Below, piece after piece: positions 13,163-49,780 of a stretch of DNA of 64,000 nt. How positions within the stretch are numbered: position 1 is the stretch's first letter; every line of letters begins with the position of its first letter. Made by a program: the position numbers and the translations under genes. The DNA is from a virus (Duplodnaviria > Caudoviricetes), in the IMG/VR virus record IMGVR_UViG_2974707348_000001, positions 1-64,000 of that record. One strand, given 5' to 3'. The notes below the pieces were generated by a model. That model had not been told where the DNA came from. It searched no databases and worked only from the letters and a program-made list of their open reading frames with translations.

Positions 13163-13218
13163 ACCTCAAACAATCCACCTCAAACAATCCACCTCAAACA
13201 ATCCACCTCAAACAATCC
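13163..13218. repeat. 14-bp tandem repeat x4 (ACCTCAAACAATCC)
   Basis: Four perfect adjacent copies read directly. Confidence 0.95.
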
Positions 13219-13482
13219 AACCCCCTTACAAATCCTTTTTTTTATTTTTCTTTTTTGTCTTTCGTCTTTCGTGCTATTCTCTTACCACTCTAACGCCTAA
13301 CCCTTCTACCTCCTTACCTCCTTACCCTTTAGCCTTAACAGCTTAACAGCTTAAGCATAACAACCAATCAACCATATAACACAACCAACCAACAAACAAC
13401 CATATAACAAAACAAAAGAAAGGGCAAAGCCTTAACGCTTTACCCTTTAACCTTATATCATTATAACATAACTCACTCTATA

Positions 13483-40508: not shown

Positions 40509-40581
40509 GGTTCTATAGCTTAGATGGTAAAGCCCTCTGCCCATAACAGAGTTAACGCAGGTTCAAGCCCTGCTAGAACCA
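40509..40581 (+). tRNA. tRNA-Met(CAU) (elongator Met or Ile2)
   Basis: Acceptor GGTTCTA/TAGAACC; anticodon arm CTCTG-CCCATAA-CAGAG; T-loop TTCAAGC. Confidence 0.85.
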
Positions 40582-40629
40582 TTCCCAAAAGGGAAAATAG
40601 ACAGATAGATAGAAAGAGAGGTACTAACC

Positions 40630-41963
40630 ATGATTTTAAAATATGGAGTACATAACGGTAAAGGAGAAACAGTTGTTAATATCGTAGACAACATCACAAG
40701 TGTAGAGGAGGTTGAAGGGAGTAATGCCCCCATCTTCCACCATGAAAGAGGAGATAAACCTCGGACATATTTCGGCAATCTCAAAGAGAATGAATATATT
40801 ATCTTTATGTATTTGATGAACGATGATTTTAAAACAATTAAAATTTACAAGAGGGATTAAACATGAAACGTATAAAAACACAGACTATATCATTTGATAT
40901 GAATGAAGTGAAAGCATTGACAGGTTTTACTTTAAAAAACTCATGGGGGAACTATGTTCTTGAACATGAAAAATATGGAGTTATCCATGACGTCGTTGAA
41001 GGTGAAGATGGAGAATCTTGGACAAATGGTCTGTTTAATTGCCACATGACTGAGTTAGAAGGTGCCCTAAGACATTATGTTCATCAAAATTTTAGTCTTG
41101 ACTATTTCGATATCGTACAGAACGGTCGATTTGAATATGATACTGTTGGGCATACTGTTCAATTCCATTCTGAAAATGAAGTTACAGTATATTTTATTCT
41201 TGAGGATGAAAAATATTGGGAGGTATCTTAATTTACTTTTTATTTTATTGCTTTTAAATATAATATGTAAGGAGAAAATATGGATACAACAACTGCATTA
41301 AAAATAACAGCAACAGCTGTAATTGCGACACTCTTTGAGTATGGATGGTATAAGAGTGTCGAGTGGATTTCTGAATGGAATTATACATGTGGAGTGATAT
41401 GGTTATTAGTGACATTTGCGATACAATTATTTTTAGTTCTTAGATTTACTGGTGATTTTCTTGATTTATTTTAAAGTTTATGCTTGACAAACATTAAAAG
41501 ATATGGTATAATATTTATATAACGCAAGGAGAGAAACATGGAAGAGAAATATATCGAATATCAAACAATGGTAGAAGAAATCATTCTAGGTCGTCGTATT
41601 GTTGTTATTGTTCCAGACAATATGCAAGATTATTCTAGGTTAAATAAAAAGTTAATTAACGATGGAGTTCATTATGAAAATCTATGGCTTGACTTACATA
41701 TGCCAAAAGACAGAATTAACATAATTAAATTAAGTACCTCCAATGGTCGTGAAAAACTTAAGCTTAAACCATTAACATTCTTAGTTGTTACAGACCCTTA
41801 TACTATGGAAGCTCTTGAAGTATATGCTGGTAAGAGTGATATTCTATATGTCGGTATGGATGGAAAAGGTAATTTATTAGATGTAACAGATAATTTAGAG
41901 TATATTTACGACAAATTCTTTCAGCCATTTCAATACTTTGAAGAAGTTCGAGGAGATTTGTAA
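40630..41963 (+). CDS. small hypothetical ORFs (40630-40860, 40863-41231, 41280-41474, 41538-41963)
   Basis: RBSs; promoter at ~41484. Confidence 0.6.
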
Positions 41964-42058
41964 GATTAAATAATTTAAAAAAAATTCAACTTTATACTTG
42001 ACATTATATCAAAATTATGGTATAATATTAATATAGTCAAGTGAGAGAGGTTGATTGA

Positions 42059-42658
42059 ATGAAAGAAATTGATTCAAAAGAGTTCTTTCCTATAAAAAGA
42101 TATGAAGGTATTTATGAAATCAATACTAACGGAGATATTCGTTCAGTAGATAGAATAATAACAACTAAAGGAAGCAATGGAAGGGGCTCTTACACTTCTC
42201 ATAAAAAGGGAGTTCCAATGAAGAGTTTTCAAAATGGTAGTGGTTATCTTCAAATTAGATTAAGTGTAAATGGTAAATGTAGAATGGAATATGTACATTG
42301 TCTTGTATATGATACTTTCATTGGTATCGAAGATAAGAAAAATGATATAGACCACTTAGACCATAACAAATTAAATTGTTCATTGAATAATTTAGAGGAA
42401 ATAACCCATAAAGAAAATATGAGAAGAATGCGTAAATTCTATGGTATAGAAGCTAAACCCAAAGAAAAGAAAAGCCGAAGAACTTATACATATGATGAAA
42501 TGAAGGAAGCTCTTGAAAGACTTAAAGCTGAACCAATGTCTAAGGTCTGTAAAGACTATGGAATTTCTGATAAAGGTTTATCAAAAAGACTTAAGAGTGT
42601 AGGTCTTCCATATCAAATGAAGGAAATAAATAAATACTTTAATAACAACTTCTTCTAG
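42059..42658 (+). CDS. free-standing NUMOD4-HNH endonuclease adjacent to the tRNA island
   Basis: YEGIYEINTNGDIRSVDR; VHCLV..IDHLDHNKLNCSLNNLE. Confidence 0.88.
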   Translation: MKEIDSKEFFPIKRYEGIYEINTNGDIRSVDRIITTKGSNGRGSYTSHKKGVPMKSFQNGSGYLQIRLSVNGKCRMEYVHCLVYDTFIGIEDKKNDIDHLDHNKLNCSLNNLEEITHKENMRRMRKFYGIEAKPKEKKSRRTYTYDEMKEALERLKAEPMSKVCKDYGISDKGLSKRLKSVGLPYQMKEINKYFNNNFF

Positions 42659-42667
42659 TTGTTATCT

Positions 42668-42740
42668 GCTCGGTTGGTGAAGCTGGATATCATGCAAAAT
42701 TTCTAATTTTGTGTCAAGGGTTCAAATCCCTTACTGAGTA
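42668..42740 (+). tRNA. tRNA-Arg(UCU)
   Basis: Acceptor GCTCGGT/ACTGAGT; anticodon arm CAAAA-TTTCTAA-TTTTG; T-arm AAGGG-TTCAAAT-CCCTT. Confidence 0.85.
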
Positions 42741-42781
42741 TATCAAGTCAATCTTGATTGATTTCTTTATTAGATTAAATG

Positions 42782-42864
42782 AAGTGGTGGAGGTACAGAT
42801 GAATCTGTAACGTACACATGGGTTGGGGGTACGGTAAGTAGTGTAGCTTATCGCTCGACCATTT
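42782..42864 (+). ncRNA. four-way cloverleaf RNA of unknown type
   Basis: Closing stem AAGTGGT/ACCATTT enclosing three hairpins. Confidence 0.5.
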
Positions 42865-42871
42865 TTATTAA

Positions 42872-43217
42872 GGGGATGTAAAGGTTTCGACAGACTATGG
42901 CAATCTCAAATCACATTCCGACAGGGATAGTCGTAAAAACCAAACTAAATATAATTGCAAATACTCAATTAGCTGTAGCCTAAGCTACAAAAAAGTTTAA
43001 GTAATTAAACAGCTAGTAACTGAGACATCGGTAGGTCACTAGTACAAAACAGATGTGTGATGGATTCTGATAAGTCACGATTAACAATCAGAACAGAGTT
43101 AGTAGATAGTTGTTTATTCAAGAAACTAACAATGTGTATCCAATGAATAAACTATGAATGTAAGAAAGTTTTAAGATATGTATAGTTTGGACGCGGATTC
43201 GATTTCCGCCATCTCCA
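42872..43217 (+). ncRNA. ssrA: tmRNA
   Basis: 5' GGGGATGTAAAGGTTTCGAC; 3' GACGCGGATTCGATTTCCGCCATCTCCA with G3.U70; resume context ATAATT-GCA, tag ANTQLAVA* at 42957-42983. Confidence 0.93.
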
Positions 43218-43309
43218 TCATGTTTTTAAAACATATTTAAAAAACATATTACTTTATACTTGACAAACATTAAAAAATGTGTTATAATAGTATATAGTGA
43301 TTATTAAAT

Positions 43310-43461
43310 GAAATAGAGTGCGAGGTCAGTCATATCATTATGATAGTGGACTGAATGACTAGAGTAAAAAGACTAACAATCTTCTAGTCTTAGAATAGGC
43401 AAGTTCCGTTCAATGTCGCCCAAGATTTCGGTTGGAGAAACTGAGAAGACAGCTTTATTTC
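43310..43461 (+). ncRNA. structured ~150-nt RNA at the start of a promoter-driven RNA operon
   Basis: Closing stem GAAATAGAGT/GCTTTATTTC with internal hairpins; promoter at 43260-43288. Confidence 0.5.
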
Positions 43462-43465
43462 TAAA

Positions 43466-43538
43466 GGTTTGTTGGTGTAGTGGTTATCACGCTTGCCTGT
43501 CACGCAAGAGAACACGGGTTCGAATCCCGTACGAGCCG
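43466..43538 (+). tRNA. tRNA-Asp(GUC)
   Basis: Anticodon arm CTTGC-CTGTCAC-GCAAG; T-arm ACGGG-TTCGAAT-CCCGT. Confidence 0.92.
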
Positions 43539-43715
43539 TAGATAAGATAGTAATACGAGTCTTATCGCCCTCTAGGGTTCACTGTAATGCCTAGGGTAAA
43601 AGGCTTTAGCCTAGTCCAGTATGGTAGTTTTAGTAACTTTATAACAAAGTTCTAAAGTCATCGAGGATATTGGACTAATGTAACACTACTAAATGTTAGA
43701 AAGTTAGTAGTCAAA

Positions 43716-43777
43716 GGTTAACGAGTGGTAGCAGTAGTTATTAAATGTTCAGCTGATGAAGTGGACAGCCAAGTATA
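43716..43777 (+). repeat. 62-nt structured RNA repeat, copy 1
   Basis: 59/62 identical to 45882-45943. Confidence 0.9.
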
Positions 43778-43905
43778 GGGTGCTTAGGATAATAATAAAG
43801 ATAGTCCTAATTGTTAAATGAGTAAAACTATCCAAGTCGACGGAAACTAACAGCCCTTTGTATATTATATGTCAGTGAACCTTTAACGTAGCTGGCATAT
43901 AATAA

Positions 43906-43977
43906 CAGGATATAGTGTTAATGGTAGCATGCGTGTTTTGGGAACATGTAGTGTTGGTTCGAGTCCAGCTATCCTGA
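43906..43977 (+). tRNA. tRNA-Pro(UGG)
   Basis: Acceptor CAGGATA/TATCCTG; anticodon arm CGTGT-TTTGGGA-ACATG. Confidence 0.9.
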
Positions 43978-44182
43978 TGAGTGGTGTATAGTCCACACGT
44001 AAAGTGTCTAATCGGTGTACAACGTATGGCACAACTATACAAGCATGAGAGTATGATAAATACCTGACGGGTGTAGCTACTATTTGTTATAACTACTTAT
44101 GTTAGTTACCAGAAACCTAGTGTATTAAATGTCACAGGGTAAAGGATAGGAACAAAGACCTATCGAATAAGTGACAGCTGGT

Positions 44183-44241
44183 TAGAGTAATAGGTTGCAA
44201 CAGGTCACGACTGTGGAGGGTCCGAGTCCCTTCTGCTCTGT
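44183..44241 (+). ncRNA. mini tRNA-like RNA 1 (no D-stem or anticodon arm)
   Basis: TAGAGTA/TGCTCTG acceptor, hairpin ACAG/CTGT, T-arm GGAGGG-TCCGAGT-CCCTTC. Confidence 0.5.
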
Positions 44242-44300
44242 TGAGGGAGCATAAACCTGGCGAAAAGTTATGTGGAGGAATAAACCTGGCGAAAAATTCA

Positions 44301-44358
44301 TCCGATATTATGGTTAAATAAAGGACGCTTTATGTTGGTTCGATTCCAACTGTCGGAT
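44301..44358 (+). ncRNA. mini tRNA-like RNA 2
   Basis: TCCGATA/TGTCGGA acceptor, ATAAAG-GACG-CTTTAT hairpin, T-arm GTTGG-TTCGATT-CCAAC. Confidence 0.7.
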
Positions 44359-44418
44359 ATAGGTGTTGCTTATTCACCGTATAATAAGCTAGAAAAGTAA
44401 GTATAGTAGGTAAATAAA

Positions 44419-44934
44419 ATGACAAATCCAATTCTAATCAAAGAATTAAGTTTTCAACTTAAAGAATATCGAGATATCTTAACAGATATTATTAAGTTAT
44501 CTGCACGTTCTGATGACCAAGCAAATTCAGCTAAAAATATATTATTTCAAATATTTTATCATACAGAATGGATGATTCAAATGTATGCTGGTAATTATGA
44601 AGAAAAACCATACGGAGACTCCGAAGATTTAAGTTTTAAAGAAGGAAAAGTTTCTCAAAATATTGTAAAATATATTATGGATAACTTCAAAGGTATTCCA
44701 CTTACAGAAGAAGGTTTGAGTAAGTTGACTAAGAAAGAAAAAGAATTTTTAAATCCTTTCGAAGACCTATTATCTATCACCCATAGAATGATAAGAGCTG
44801 TTGTAGATTATTCAGATAGTCATTCTGAAAGTAAAACTATAGACAGAACAGATGCACAACCTATGAGTATTTTATATTTCATTGATTCACTGAAAGAAAG
44901 AACTGCTTATGCTATGGAAAAAGAAGTATACTAA
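44419..44934 (+). CDS. hypothetical protein embedded in the RNA island
   Basis: 171-aa ORF. Confidence 0.65.
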   Translation: MTNPILIKELSFQLKEYRDILTDIIKLSARSDDQANSAKNILFQIFYHTEWMIQMYAGNYEEKPYGDSEDLSFKEGKVSQNIVKYIMDNFKGIPLTEEGLSKLTKKEKEFLNPFEDLLSITHRMIRAVVDYSDSHSESKTIDRTDAQPMSILYFIDSLKERTAYAMEKEVY

Positions 44935-45073
44935 TTTAGGTGACTCACTACCTATACCCCAAATGTGAAGCTTAAAGGGGGTTAATAACACTATTCCCTA
45001 GGTTTGAATCCTTGAAAATTATCGGTAAGCGATGATTGCAAAATTCATAGTGGATGGAGCAAGAGTGTTTCAT

Positions 45074-45147
45074 TGGTTGGTAGCTCAGTTGGTAGTAGCA
45101 CTAGTCTCCAAAACTAGGTGTCGTGAGTTCGAATCTCACCCAATCAG
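45074..45147 (+). tRNA. tRNA-Trp(CCA)
   Basis: Anticodon arm CTAGT-CTCCAAA-ACTAG; canonical D and T arms. Confidence 0.92.
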
Positions 45148-45212
45148 TATGTAAGAGCTGTGCACAGTTACTTACAGAGTTAGGTCAAAGGATTAATTAA
45201 CCTTAACCAAAC

Positions 45213-45266
45213 GGCTTGTTTTTGGTAATAACATGCGTTAACTGAGTTCGATTCTCAGGCAAGTCT
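45213..45266 (+). ncRNA. mini tRNA-like RNA 3
   Basis: GGCTTGT/GCAAGTC acceptor, TAAC-ATGC-GTTA hairpin, T-arm CTGAG-TTCGATT-CTCAG. Confidence 0.7.
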
Positions 45267-45322
45267 TATCAGTACCTTATCCGCTTAAGTAGAAATACAG
45301 CGCATTAGATAAGGGCGATTGA

Positions 45323-45394
45323 ATCCGTTTAGTGTAGTGGTAAGCACATCAGATTCCAAACCTGATAACGTGGGTTCGATTCCTACAATGGATG
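45323..45394 (+). tRNA. second tRNA-Trp(CCA)
   Basis: Acceptor ATCCGTT/AATGGAT; anticodon arm TCAGA-TTCCAAA-CCTGA (A.C mismatch); T-arm GTGGG-TTCGATT-CCTAC. Confidence 0.8.
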
Positions 45395-45607
45395 TTATAT
45401 GTGTGCAAGTCTCTCATAAAGGGAGATGGTGTTAAATGCGGAAGATGTCCGACAGCCATATAAAAACAACACAGCCAAAATACGACTCTATATAGATATT
45501 TTGGTTTGCAATCTTGGTGGTAATCGTTATAGAGACGGTAAGTCCGAAAATGATAGGGAAGGTGTTGTATGCCTATCTACGAGAGTGTTCAAGAAGCTCT
45601 CAATTAT

Positions 45608-45679
45608 ACAGGGTGGGTGGCAAGGAGTCGCATTAGTTTTATAGGCTAAATAAGAGCGGTTCGATTCCGTTACCCCGAA
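45608..45679 (+). tRNA. tRNA-Ile(UAU) with an imperfect acceptor stem
   Basis: Anticodon arm TTAGT-TTTATAG-GCTAA; T-arm AGCGG-TTCGATT-CCGTT. Confidence 0.6.
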
Positions 45680-45881
45680 TATTACTGAAAAGTAATTAAA
45701 AGGAACTTTGAGTAGTTCGCCTTTATGGAAACGGGTTGTTAGTGTATACCGCAAAAGAAAACTATCCGTTACTCTTTACGATATAAGAAGCTTAAAATCA
45801 TGTTTGGTCTTTGCATATCATTCCTAAAGACTAAGGTGTACTGATTGACGGTGCTTAAATGTTATAGAGTTGACAGCCAAT

Positions 45882-46129: not shown

Positions 46130-46224
46130 TTTAATTTAAAATATTATTACTCATCTCTTGACAAACTCATTTGATTATGGTATAATAATATATGTAAGTT
46201 AAAAAAACGTAAGGAGAACAAAAT

Positions 46225-46338
46225 ATGGGATGTTTAATTCCGATTGTATTAATTGTATTTTTAATCAATCCAGCTATGGGTTTAATGACAGCAATTATTT
46301 TATTGATTGTATTGGCACTAGCAAGTCTTAAAAAATAA
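46225..46338 (+). CDS. 37-aa hydrophobic peptide
   Basis: AAGGAG RBS; MGCLIPIVLIVFLINPAMGLMTAIILLIVLALASLKK. Confidence 0.65.
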   Translation: MGCLIPIVLIVFLINPAMGLMTAIILLIVLALASLKK

Positions 46339-46351
46339 GGAGAAAACACAA

Positions 46352-47008
46352 ATGACACAAAGTAAAACACTCACAGTACAAGAAGCACTTAATGAACTTA
46401 AAGTTCTTGACAAACGTATTGAACGTAAACTTGGAGACACTAAATATGTAGGTGTTGTTCAAGAAGACAAACTTGTTTATCCTGCATCATCAAAAGGTGA
46501 TAAAGATAAATTCATTTCAGAGGCAAAATCTAGTATTGATTCATTACTTGATTTGATTGCTTATCGTCATGCTTTGAAAGCTGGTGTATTGCGTTCTAAT
46601 GCGTTAACAGAAGTTGTAATTGGAGACAAAACAATGACAGTTGCAGAAGCAATTGATTATAAAACTTCAATCCAAAGTGAAAAAGATTTGGTTCAAACTC
46701 TTGTTAATGATTTGACTCAAGCGACAACTAAGGCGACACGTATTAATGAGGATATTGATAAGACTCTTGAAAAGAAACAAAATAGCTTGTTAAGCTCAGA
46801 CAAAGACGATAAAAATCCTGATATTATTAAATTCTTGAAAGAACAAGCTGAGAGCGAAAAAGCAACAGTTCTTGAATTGGAAGTTGGTAAAGCTCTTGTA
46901 AGTGATTACACCAAAGCTAAACTTGACTCAATTGAACAATTTGAACAAACAGTTGATTTCAAATTAACTGCATCAAATGTTGCAACAGAAATTACCGTTG
47001 AGTGGTAA
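46352..47008 (+). CDS. coiled-coil protein resembling the DIP1984/DUF6847-type family
   Basis: LTVQEALNELKVLDKRI..SNA.T.V.IG..MTVAEAI..VDFKLTASNVATEI. Confidence 0.7.
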   Translation: MTQSKTLTVQEALNELKVLDKRIERKLGDTKYVGVVQEDKLVYPASSKGDKDKFISEAKSSIDSLLDLIAYRHALKAGVLRSNALTEVVIGDKTMTVAEAIDYKTSIQSEKDLVQTLVNDLTQATTKATRINEDIDKTLEKKQNSLLSSDKDDKNPDIIKFLKEQAESEKATVLELEVGKALVSDYTKAKLDSIEQFEQTVDFKLTASNVATEITVEW

Positions 47009-47021
47009 TAATTAAGTTATA

Positions 47022-47401
47022 ATCATGTTATGACGAACAATCTAAAGTATAGATTTCCAGATAGTTCTGTTTTTCAGAGGTTCTTATAACTGGAAATAAA
47101 TAATAAATATGACGAACTTCTGATACTATAATATAATATAAAAATATGATGAATCTCAAAAAGAGAGGTTATGTATTCAAGACGGTAAGGATGAGTCCTT
47201 ATTCGTAGGAATAGATAAAAACTACTTCATAGATTATAGTTCAAAGCTCATGCTTTATAGCTTAGAGTTTATATCTTATATTGGATAATGAATCCAGTTA
47301 TAGATTAAGTTTGAAGATTTAAGTTTTCTTCAAAATCCTAGAGTTACGTTTTGTGACTTTCTATATCAGTTTGGTTGTACGCTAGGCTGTCATAACATGG
47401 T
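47022..47401 (+). ncRNA. ~380-nt candidate ncRNA with heptamer repeats
   Basis: Closing stem CATGTTATGAC(47024)/GTCATAACATG(47389); eight in-phase 7-mers at 47226-47281; no ORF. Confidence 0.7.
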
Positions 47402-47402
47402 A

Positions 47403-47439
47403 AAATAAGGACTACTTCAGTAGTTCTTATTTTTTTTAT
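47403..47439 (+). terminator. intrinsic terminator
   Basis: AATAAGGACTAC-TTCA-GTAGTTCTTATT followed by a T-run. Confidence 0.85.
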
Positions 47440-47511
47440 ACTTTTCTCTTGACAAAGCAAAATAGTTATGGTATAATATATTATAACCGATTGAAAGGAA
47501 TGGTATTAACA

Positions 47512-49780
47512 TTGACAGAAAAAATTAGAAAGCTGAGTAATCGTGACCAAGCTCGTGAGAAGATTGCGGTATGGTACGGTTCAGCAGATAACTACCAACA
47601 TGGACTAAAAGAACTCCTAGCCAATGCAACAGATGAAATTATTAATAATTTTGAAGATGGGACTATTACGGTCAAGCTGAGTGCAGATGGCTCAACAGTA
47701 ACTGTTACAGATACTGGTCGAGGTATTCCAATTTCAGGCGAAACTGACGGAATCCCCAACTATGAATTGTTGTTTTTGACTCTCTTTGCAGGAACTAAGT
47801 ATGGAGATAGTGGTGTAACAAATGGAACTTATACAGGTTCAAATGGTGTAGGTACTACAGTTCTTAACTATACGTCAGTTCTTTTCGAAGTAACATCAAT
47901 TATTAAGGGAATTAAATACCATATTAAATTCACTAATGGTGGAGAAGTTACCGAAGAGTTAACAGAAGAAAAAACAAATGATACTGATGGAACAACTGTG
48001 ACGTTTTCACTTGACCCAGCAGTTTATACAAAGACAGTCTTTAAAGACGAAGATGTCCGTGAGATTGCACACCGATATGCTGTTAGTTCAAATAAGATTA
48101 CAGTTGACTATATTCATGGAGAGACTGAATTAAAATACCATTATACAGACTTGAAAGAATATTATTCAGAACTTACAGGTGCTGTCAATACAAGTGGGAT
48201 TGTCTTTGGTGATTTGGTTGAGTATCAAGATACAATTACAAGTAATCAACATGATGTTTTCACGTCTCATGAAGAATTAACTTCTCTTTCGATTGCATTA
48301 TCAACCTCAACAACACCAACACAAGAATCTTACTTGAACTTAAACTACTTACCTAATGGTGGCAAGATTAACGAAGGAATTATTAATGGTATTAAACTTT
48401 ACGTTAATAAATACTGTCGTGCAAATAATCTGTTTCCTAAGAAAGTCAATTCTTTTTCAGATTCAGATATTACAGAGTCATTTAGCTTTGTAGCTGTTAT
48501 GTTTTCAAACAATGTTGAGTTTGCAAATCAAACTAAATTCTCTACAAACAAAGAACTCTATAAAGAAGTTGCCAAGAGACGTGTTACACAAATCTTAGAA
48601 GTCACAGAAATTGAAGACCCTAAAAACTTCAAAGATATTATTAATCACCTACTTCTTGTTCAAAAAGAAAATACAGTCAATGCTAAACACAAAGAGAAAC
48701 TTAAAAAGAAATTGACTGAAAAGGTTGATTCAATGTCAAATCGTATTGATAAACTTGTTGATTCTCGTATTCATGGGGAAGAAGCAGAGCTTTATCTTGC
48801 GGAGGGAGACTCGGCTCATGGTTCAGTAGTTTTAGCTCGTGATAGTAGGTTCCAAGCAAGTATGCCTATGGGTGGTAAATTCCTTAACGTTGAAAAAGCA
48901 ATGAATATTGAAGACATTGTTAATAATGAAACAGTCATGAATGTAATTAAGGCTTTGGGGTGTGGGATTGATTTAGGTAAGAAACAAAAAGACTTACCTA
49001 AATTCGACATTACTAAGCTACGCTATGGGAAAATTATCTGTGCGTCAGATGAAGACCCAGATGGAGCGCAAATTCAATGTTTGATTATTACACTGTTCTA
49101 TAAGTTAATGCCAGAAATTATTCATACTGGTCGCCTATACTTGGCTCAAACACCTTTGTTCGAAATTAAGCTCAAAGATGATTCAGTTCTGTATGCTTAT
49201 ACAGATAAGGGACGTGATGAAATTCTAAAAGAACAAGGAAATAAAGTAGTTCAATATTCACGTTCCAAAGGGTAAGAGGAAATCCAAGCCCTTAACCACC
49301 TTTTCCAGTTATCACTGGGGTAATCATTATGATTGCTAACGAGGTAGCCTAAGTCTTTAAGATATGGTAATCTCGTGGGAAATTTTAAGTGTTTATTTTA
49401 TAAATTTGATTAGAAATTGGAAATCAATAATAGTTTAAATAAAATAAACACTTAAATAAACCTGTATCGACTATCGGCTTTGTCGCTGAGTACGCTAACT
49501 ATTGATACGTTAGTGGAAATGGGTGGATAACCATTTTTGGTTATTAAGAAATAGTCAGTGCCTGATGAAAAGAAGGATAATACACGTAGGAGAATTAGAT
49601 GCACATGTTATGGCTGAGACAGCAATGAATCCTGAGACTCGTCATTTGACACGTGTTACAATTGAAGATGCCAAAGAAGCTGAACAAGCTATTGTTGATT
49701 GGATGGGTAATGATGTTAGCAATCGTAAAGTATTCATTTCAAGAAACCTTAACAAATTTATTAAAGAAGGACTAGAATAA
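47512..49780 (+). CDS. type II topoisomerase subunit B (GyrB/ParE-like), spliced join(47512..49273,49587..49780)
   Basis: GHKL ELLANATDE, DTGRGIP, GSNGVG; TOPRIM EGDSA, DEDPDG; splicing restores SKGLGELD. Confidence 0.92.
49274..49586 (+). mobile_element. ORF-less group I intron in the topoisomerase B gene
   Basis: P1 AGGGT/GCCCT with U.G; core CTAACGAGG, AATCTCGTG, GTATCGACTA, AAATAGTC; ends in G before TAGGAGAA. Confidence 0.9.

Follow-up and report, generated by a model that had tools for sequence, protein, structure and literature searches.

Several bacterial proteins are known to read short RNA repeats, among them TRAP, which recognizes (G/U)AG repeats, and HutP, which recognizes UAG-N4 repeats. 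Here we describe a phage RNA in which 7-nt units are arranged in two phased arrays, and which lies directly behind a gene of the PHROG 1491 protein family. The RNA, of 380 nt, occupies positions 47022-47401 of the + strand in a stretch of 64,000 nucleotides of viral DNA (positions 1 to 64,000 of the IMG/VR record IMGVR_UViG_2974707348_000001), and this whole stretch is called the window below. The region of the window shares 90-97% identity with the Lactococcus 949-group phages AM1, AM4, WRP3, LW81, phiL47, and 949, and by this measure the window is itself a 949-group phage. A preliminary description of the locus had read it as an operon of a promoter, a membrane peptide, a coiled-coil protein, and a repeat-bearing RNA, and had mentioned similar repeat tracts behind homologous genes in other Firmicutes. 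As detailed in the following sections, the element at 47022-47401 belongs to a large family of structured RNAs of phages that had not been annotated before.

A structured RNA behind PHROG 1491 genes

Around homologues of the 218-aa protein gene, 160 loci were collected from IMG/VR and from metagenomes, with duplicates removed by gene sequence; where needed, loci are named by L numbers. Homologues below 40% identity were regarded as distant, and periodicity was scored in the 450 nt past their stop codons. In this interval the best tract at lag 7 has a mean identity of 0.565 and reaches at least 0.60 in 35 of 108 loci, a level found in none of 104 upstream flanks, 91 flanks taken another 1 kb downstream, or the bodies of 114 genes; among the other lags from 5 to 10, none reaches 0.60. 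The best long-range stem after the stop measures at least 12 bp on the + strand in 89 of 109 loci, compared with 45/109 for the reverse complement, 22/109 for shuffled sequences, and 26/95 for upstream flanks. When a strict stem-plus-junction rule is applied, 87 of 111 loci contain the element, with the same inner junctions (G|AA... and ...GC|U) as in the window. Its start is 3-84 nt (median 14) past the stop, its length is 259-425 nt (median 320), and its stem includes 2.5 G.U pairs on average. A covariance model (R1), built on the 3' 126 nt of the element, detected it in 14 of 28 loci missed by the strict rule, 13 of which belong to the 111; together, rule and model are positive for 100 of the 111 loci with enough flanking sequence. 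The model gave no further matches in 234 kb, both strands included.

The tracts that had been mentioned behind homologous genes thus exist, whether they are counted by periodicity (35/108) or by the covarying stem (87/111), and they occur far outside Firmicutes, in T5-like, Vibrio, Erwinia, and other phages. The preliminary description had also asked whether homologues might lack any structured or periodic RNA downstream, and its idea withstands this check, since under the strict rule 87/111 do carry the element. In T5 it follows T5.085, and it is found behind the orthologous genes of SP15, bombadil, Bacillus phage G, phiCD211, Vibrio JSF12, and Erwinia Hena1; nothing is annotated at the element in the records of any of these seven phages. 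The association was also recovered from the RNA side. When IMG/VR was scanned with the 3' motif of the element, 62 matches were returned, of which 31 have heptamer periodicity just upstream. The protein gene lies upstream in all 30 of those that could be assessed, the 31st having only 377 nt of flank. The remaining 31 matches have neither periodicity nor gene (0/31) and correspond to chance. Gene and RNA are linked in both search directions.

The constancy of this arrangement suits a cis-acting role, in which the element would be a 3' untranslated region that stabilizes or processes the mRNA or a tRNA-operon transcript, or that gives the protein feedback control of its own expression or of read-through into downstream genes, with no free-standing particle. 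The element is always found within the short distance of the stop given above and on the strand of the gene, and in the window no terminator intervenes between gene and RNA while one follows the RNA. In 12 of 84 loci, tRNA genes begin no more than 40 nt 3' of the element. Moreover, TRAP and HutP, the closest repeat-binding analogues, are themselves cis regulators of termination. Against such a role, a length of 260-430 nt, conserved junctions, about 11 phased units, and a closing helix far exceed what is known of 3' stabilizers. Furthermore, the arrays overlap neither the terminator nor any alternative hairpin, and the downstream content is not conserved. A purely cis-acting function is accordingly judged quite improbable.

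No known RNA family accounts for the element. Searches with Rfam 15 at the gathering score, over the whole window and 17 loci, returned only tRNA, tmRNA, and one skipping-rope RNA, all located elsewhere, and at E<=10 over positions 46900-47520 they returned chance-level matches on the terminator only; membership of a known RNA family was rejected on the basis of this lack of a match. A miniature inverted-repeat transposable element defined by its inverted ends was also rejected, since the 123-kb genome has only one copy of the element, whose stem sequence recurs no more often than expected by chance. A conserved 21-mer has no match in the genomes of 185,579 species. An extra IMG/VR match to a 16-mer (L089) is located within coding sequence and was discarded as chance. 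With the 949-type RNA as query, an nhmmer profile search retrieved matches limited to the 949 group and the related phage PMBT69, which implies that the RNA family is recognized by its architecture and not by its sequence. In the openly accessible literature, no description of the RNA or of a function of the gene was found, and an earlier account may exist elsewhere. Passages of two papers on the 949 group (PMC3888941, PMC5371800) make no mention of the region.

Closing helix and heptamer arrays

In a MAFFT alignment of 70 diverse members (A4), the heptamers stand in register across all the RNAs. The closing helix, named P1, and a 5-bp helix of the 3' part comprise 20 pairs, and 90.6% of the 1336 corresponding cells are paired, versus 62.2% in shuffled controls (0 of 500 reach 90.6%) and 29-43% when the partners are slid. 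Changes on both sides of a pair account for 412 cells and concern 18 of the 20 pairs, and every pair of P1 covaries across the 70 RNAs. For the 3' 5-bp helix alone (AAAAUCC-NNG with CNN-GGCUG), 96.9% of the cells are paired, with double changes in four of the five pairs. If the arms are delimited by the junction columns only, at least 10 of 11 positions are paired in 52 of 69 RNAs, versus 3.6% when the two arms come from different RNAs, and the 17 failures are one-column alignment slips.

From these data a common architecture emerges for RNAs of about 260-430 nt that lie on the same strand as the PHROG 1491 gene and immediately 3' of it. A long closing helix, bordered by the junctions G|AAAAYC... 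and ...GGC|UG, is followed by a 5' hairpin region, an array of about seven units, a short spacer that is rich in U and may include a hairpin, a second array of about four units, and the motif UCGAUAAAAUCC; then come a 3' hairpin domain, GGCUG, and the 3' arm. The unit has the logo G/n-U-U-C/U-A-A-A with an invariant U-N-A core, and uninterrupted strict chains most often count seven units (median six), with four as the longest in shuffled sequences. Both arrays are unpaired in the consensus fold.

Contiguous 7-bp units in an A/T-rich region would also be compatible with a site acting as DNA, such as origin iterons or a centromere-like site, or with an origin primer RNA. There are precedents of both kinds, as the omega protein of pSM19035 reportedly binds 7-bp heptads, and an origin primer RNA is said to occur in the lactococcal phage c2. 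In the window, the element indeed lies just upstream of topoisomerase and replication genes. This neighborhood is not conserved, however, the neighbors in T5 and SP15 being an endolysin and a YqeY-like gene, and for the protein neither a ribbon-helix-helix nor an initiator match was obtained. The closing helix joins segments some 300 nt apart and is far better on the strand of the gene. An origin or centromere acting as DNA is very improbable, as the helices are specific to one strand and G.U-rich, and covarying helices with about 2.5 G.U pairs per stem point to RNA and not to a DNA site.

The window RNA follows the family plan. Its closing stem, for which 11-13 bp had been announced, is real and somewhat longer, with 14 bp between the 5' arm (47022-47035) and the 3' arm (47388-47401), including two G.U pairs. 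The conserved junction G|AACAAUCUAAA (47036-47047) comes directly after the 5' arm, and a conserved GGC precedes the 3' arm. The first array (47225/6-47281) consists of eight units of the form N-Y-U-Y-A-U-A. It is separated by a variable hairpin, UGGAU/AUCCA (47282-47296), from the second array (47296-47323), a chain of four units in phase. The eight consecutive heptamers and the four after a hairpin therefore lie within 1-2 nt of where they had been placed initially. Further on, the 3' domain (47332-47386) contains the conserved AAAAUCC motif and a helix, CCUAG (47337-47341) with CUAGG (47382-47386), formed around an inner hairpin. All these features are on the + strand, for which the predicted fold has an energy of -114.6 kcal/mol (z = -5.9), compared with -91.3 kcal/mol (z = -5.6) for the - strand.

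All 12 units of the window have U as their third and A as their fifth nucleotide, and the in-phase U-N-A chain is eight units long, versus a maximum of four in shuffled RNAs. By its lag-7 score the tract comes second within the 64 kb of the window, so that periodicity within the window alone is unexceptional and its significance rests on other phages. Elsewhere in the window, a repeat-rich stretch at about 13.0-14.7 kb also scores highly for several short periods and contains a perfect 14-nt tandem repeat, ACCTCAAACAATCC, in 4.1 copies at 13163-13219. In the 5' half of the RNA, a motif AUGACGAAC / AUGAUGAAU occurs three times (47036-47044, 47109-47117, and 47145-47153), the first of these copies belonging to the conserved P1 junction. 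The seven 949-group sequences are uninformative for comparison because they are too similar to one another. PMBT69 is more distant, with about 66% DNA identity and 48% protein identity to the window unit. It has the same arrangement minus the peptide open reading frame (ORF), all eight heptamers are in register, and the closing stem is kept through four compensatory changes. The inter-array hairpin is absent from PMBT69, two inner hairpins of the RNA are missing, and a perfectly conserved 16-mer precedes the 3' arm.

Arrays that are single-stranded, A/U-rich, and poor in G could also be addressed to the host. A conserved host factor would then bind or cleave at the heptamers, and the RNA would serve as its sponge, decoy, or scaffold. 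This factor could be an endoribonuclease, Rho, ribosomal protein S1, or an enzyme that binds or cleaves tRNA, and the upstream protein would act in the same pathway instead of coating the RNA. The acidic character of this protein is consistent with such a scheme, as is the presence of the module in or near tRNA clusters, with tRNA genes located within about 3 kb in 84 of 176 loci, always on the strand of the gene. Two likenesses could be added: G|UUY may resemble the RN|WUU preference of RNase E, and U-N-A-A within a 7-nt unit may be reminiscent of an anticodon loop (U33, A35). Yet the RNase E motif leaves the invariant A at position 5 unexplained, and the unit is conserved although the hosts, Firmicutes and Proteobacteria, have differing RNases. 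In addition, neither the strict two-way linkage nor the fixed position behind the gene is demanded by a host target. We consider a host-directed RNA unlikely.

The PHROG 1491 protein and a putative ribonucleoprotein

The gene upstream of the RNA (46352-47008, + strand) encodes 218 aa, as had been noted. Its product is a full-length match to PHROG 1491 (E 3.1e-68), residues 4-218 aligning with positions 2-211 of the 211-position profile. The label of this family, 'tail fiber protein', appears to be a propagated annotation and a mislabel. No meaningful match was obtained in Pfam, in NCBIfam, or among PDB sequences. In the AlphaFold2 model (pLDDT 86.8), five helices, some of them very long, and six short strands are predicted to form a helical bundle, and the coiled coil initially assigned to the protein is not established. 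The best fold match is 3kdq, an uncharacterized Corynebacterium protein (Z 10.2, rmsd 9.6). The others, such as ESCRT-III-like and BAR-like ones, are generic hairpins of helices with Z of about 7, which is background for helical models, and a fold search of BFVD returned only uncharacterized phage proteins. The conserved polar residues are R22, R72, S82-N83-T86, T96-K104, and S208-N209-T212, and include two copies of a repeated SN(A/V)xT-strand motif; T96-I101 is also among the conserved residues. In the predicted secondary structure, the polar residues are located at one pole, where helices end and strands begin. The family is acidic, with a median pI of 5.3 and a net charge of -2 to -7 in all 18 members considered.

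PHROG 1491 is also a widespread family. It comprises 3348 representative clusters at 50% identity and is encoded in 721 of 50,697 phage records. The carriers include T5-like phages, Vequintavirinae (Erwinia phage Hena1), phages of Vibrio, Pseudomonas, Bacillus, and Clostridioides, and others. Intermediate relatives of the protein, at 38-76% identity, exist but are not contained in IMG/VR, in the metagenome collection, or in phage records. One candidate relative was considered. Rad is described as a retron anti-defence protein of 189 aa from a T5-type tRNA-rich region, namely ORF75 of SP15 (10.1101/2023.03.15.532788, PMC11555353). Taking ORF75 to be the 189-aa coding sequence labelled 'DNA primase', as its length and label suggest, identity or relatedness of the two genes was rejected (BLASTP E 16, hhalign probability 0.1).

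The preliminary description had suggested a toxin-antitoxin-like pair as one possible function, and type III systems, in which a repeat RNA neutralizes a toxic protein, are the relevant comparison. A repeat-containing RNA co-transcribed with a protein does recall them, and lactococci carry such a system, AbiQ. In this case, however, no ToxN/AbiQ or other toxin family match was obtained, in a search that did not include the PADLOC library. No ToxN/AbiQ fold is among the top fold matches, a missing fold match being weak evidence. The repeats are of 7 nt and belong to a folded scaffold instead of forming processed units of about 35 nt; the RNA comes after the gene, not before it; and the terminator follows the RNA and does not separate repeats from gene. 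As the module is moreover carried by virulent phages, this function is extremely improbable, and that part of the preliminary description is not supported.

The reading that we prefer, while giving it slightly less than an even chance, is that the protein forms an oligomer on the heptamer arrays with one protomer per heptamer, by analogy with TRAP or HutP. The RNA would be made as the 3' part of the mRNA of the protein itself, and the closing helix would protect its ends. Successive copies of the 24-kDa protein would then bind one per heptamer, giving about 11-12 protomers over the two arrays, and the putative contacts would come from R22, R72, K104, and both SNxxT motifs, which make up the conserved polar pole. 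The outcome would be a ring-like or filamentous ribonucleoprotein. Because the module is so often found in or beside phage tRNA clusters, we speculate that such a particle could act early in infection, either in a tRNA- or translation-related takeover or in counter-defence. A more complete version of this scenario, which we regard as doubtful, would define a new class of ribonucleoprotein. In this version, about a dozen acidic helical copies of PHROG 1491 would load co-translationally on their own mRNA, whose 3' end bears the phased U-N-A-A heptamers, and form a defined ring or filament on a folded scaffold. Large tRNA-carrying phages (T5, the Lactococcus 949 group, Bacillus phage G) would use it to manipulate either tRNA or translation, or to weaken host defences aimed at tRNA.

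A number of observations weigh against a protein-coated array. First, the acidity of the family sets it apart from most RNA-binding proteins, and no RNA-binding domain or fold was recognized in Pfam, NCBIfam, PDB sequence, or fold searches; both RNA binding and oligomerization are putative properties of the protein. Second, in 11 of the 111 homologue loci neither the strict rule nor the covariance model detects the element, which means that the protein may work without the RNA; element-negative loci include the Bacillus-phage-type L069, L074, L082, and L138. Third, what directly follows the element varies among loci: within 40 nt of the 3' arm a tRNA begins in 12 of 84 cases, and 10 of 84 have a terminator-like site. 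Fourth, experimentally known stable RNAs such as rnaX are annotated in the T5 record, and none of them is at the element locus. Finally, transcript data are weak. Parts of the stretch are contained in 23 listed sequencing runs, five of which are recorded as RNA, and contigs from four RNA-type runs span both the ORF and the RNA, but DNA may be present in these samples. In one run, the contig depth over 46706-47337 exceeds that of the flanks. Such contigs reveal neither transcript ends, nor strand, nor expression level.

If the proposal is right, a structured RNA family has escaped annotation in thousands of phage lineages, including the long-studied T5, and its obligatory partner protein is now mislabelled as a tail fibre, so that a widely propagated annotation would have to be corrected. 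It would also add a new kind of RNA-protein module to those of phages, bear on the role of the non-tRNA genes and RNAs of phage tRNA regions, and provide, with its phased heptamer arrays, a clean model of an oligomer reading RNA repeats. The proposal would be directly testable in T5 and E. coli K-12, or in 949-group phages and L. lactis.

Setting of the unit and comparison with known systems

In the window, the unit stands at the end of a cluster of seven tRNA genes and one tmRNA gene, and the gene for the large subunit of topoisomerase II is located just downstream. The tRNA genes surround the tmRNA gene at 40509-45680, and two of them encode tRNA-Trp. The tmRNA gene (42872-43217, + strand; 111 bits with Rfam) encodes the tag peptide VKTKLNIIANTQLAVA, and tmRNA genes are also present in the related phage loci L092, L093, and L095. 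PMBT69 has a skipping-rope RNA (RF02924, 75.8 bits; L002 377-455) directly 3' of a tRNA-Asp gene, and no such match was found in the window. In many phages, the PHROG 1491 gene begins about 50 nt past the last tRNA of a long array (e.g. L068/L069/L081/L082, L054, and L074).

As had been reported initially, the unit begins with a promoter. This sigma-70-type, TG-extended consensus promoter (TTGACA-17-TATAAT; 46158-46186, + strand) has 12 of 12 matches to the consensus, is conserved in the 949 group, and is predicted to drive the unit. The next consensus promoter (47449-47477, + strand) is predicted to drive the topoisomerase II gene. Both are perfect TG-extended consensus promoters in near-identical contexts (CTCTTGACAAA ... 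TATGGTATAAT), lie 1.3 kb apart, and bracket the unit; these twin promoters may be of the phage early-promoter type. An internal promoter at 47109 was rejected, as a 5-nt indel breaks its spacing in five of the six other 949-group phages aligned (all but AM4). The hydrophobic 37-aa peptide ORF (46225-46338, + strand; phrog_9039, E 6e-23) is present where it had been seen and is annotated in AM1, phiL47, and 949. It is absent from PMBT69, in which the promoter leads straight into the PHROG 1491 gene. From this comparison of genomes, the peptide is specific to the 949 group and lies outside the conserved module, so that its inclusion in the unit does not stand. Between 47009 and 47448, 440 nt are devoid of + strand ORFs of at least 30 aa. 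The 5' arm of the RNA starts 13 nt past the 218-aa gene, with no terminator between the stop at 47008 and position 47022. An intrinsic terminator (47402-47433, + strand) closes the unit directly after the RNA, and the description of an ORF-free RNA placed immediately before a terminator is thus accurate.

Among known systems, the type III toxin-antitoxin pairs (ToxIN, AbiQ/antiQ) share with the unit the combination of a repeat RNA and a protein in one transcription unit, but differ from it in repeat length, gene order, protein family, and carrier. The omega repressor / ParB of pSM19035 reads contiguous 7-nt units with one protein unit each, which is also what is proposed for the heptamer arrays. 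However, omega is a ribbon-helix-helix protein acting on double-stranded DNA, whereas the G.U-rich covarying helices and the strand asymmetry of the present element indicate RNA. Location suggests another comparison. GOLLD (RF01998), ROOL (RF03087), and the stable RNAs of T4 and T5 (rnaX) are ornate phage RNAs found in or beside tRNA clusters, like the element described here. In T5, rnaX is a stable RNA of 719 nt that adjoins a tRNA-Arg gene and constitutes a separate locus, about 2 kb downstream of the element (L179 2849-3567; 40848-41566 of the T5 record). Neither heptamer arrays nor an obligatory partner gene are known for any of these RNAs.

The closest parallels in the proposed manner of reading are TRAP and HutP. 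TRAP reads about 11 short single-stranded repeats at a fixed spacing, one per subunit, and the unit count of the family (7-8 plus 4) is similar. It is, however, an 8-kDa beta-sandwich 11-mer with a 5-6-nt spacing that acts on a leader RNA controlling a terminator, whereas the element combines a 24-kDa helical protein, whose binding is putative, with an exact 7-nt spacing in a closed scaffold of 260-430 nt located 3' of the gene. The protein has no TrpBP-family Pfam match and a mainly helical fold, which separates it from TRAP / MtrB, and the 7-nt unit with its U-N-A core is unlike the (G/U)AG triplets of TRAP, which are 2-3 nt apart. The arrangement recognized by HutP, UAG-N4-UAG-N4-UAG, has a 7-nt period and two separate sets of triplets, and in this resembles the element. 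In a comparison with HutP-type NAG sites and 4-nt spacers, the period of 7 is shared, the core is U-N-A-A and not UAG, and several window units read UAUAG or UUAGAG. No HutP-family match for the protein was found in Pfam. HutP binds as a hexamer to 3 + 3 sites in a regulatory leader, whereas the heptamer arrays offer 11-12 sites in a phage-encoded module.

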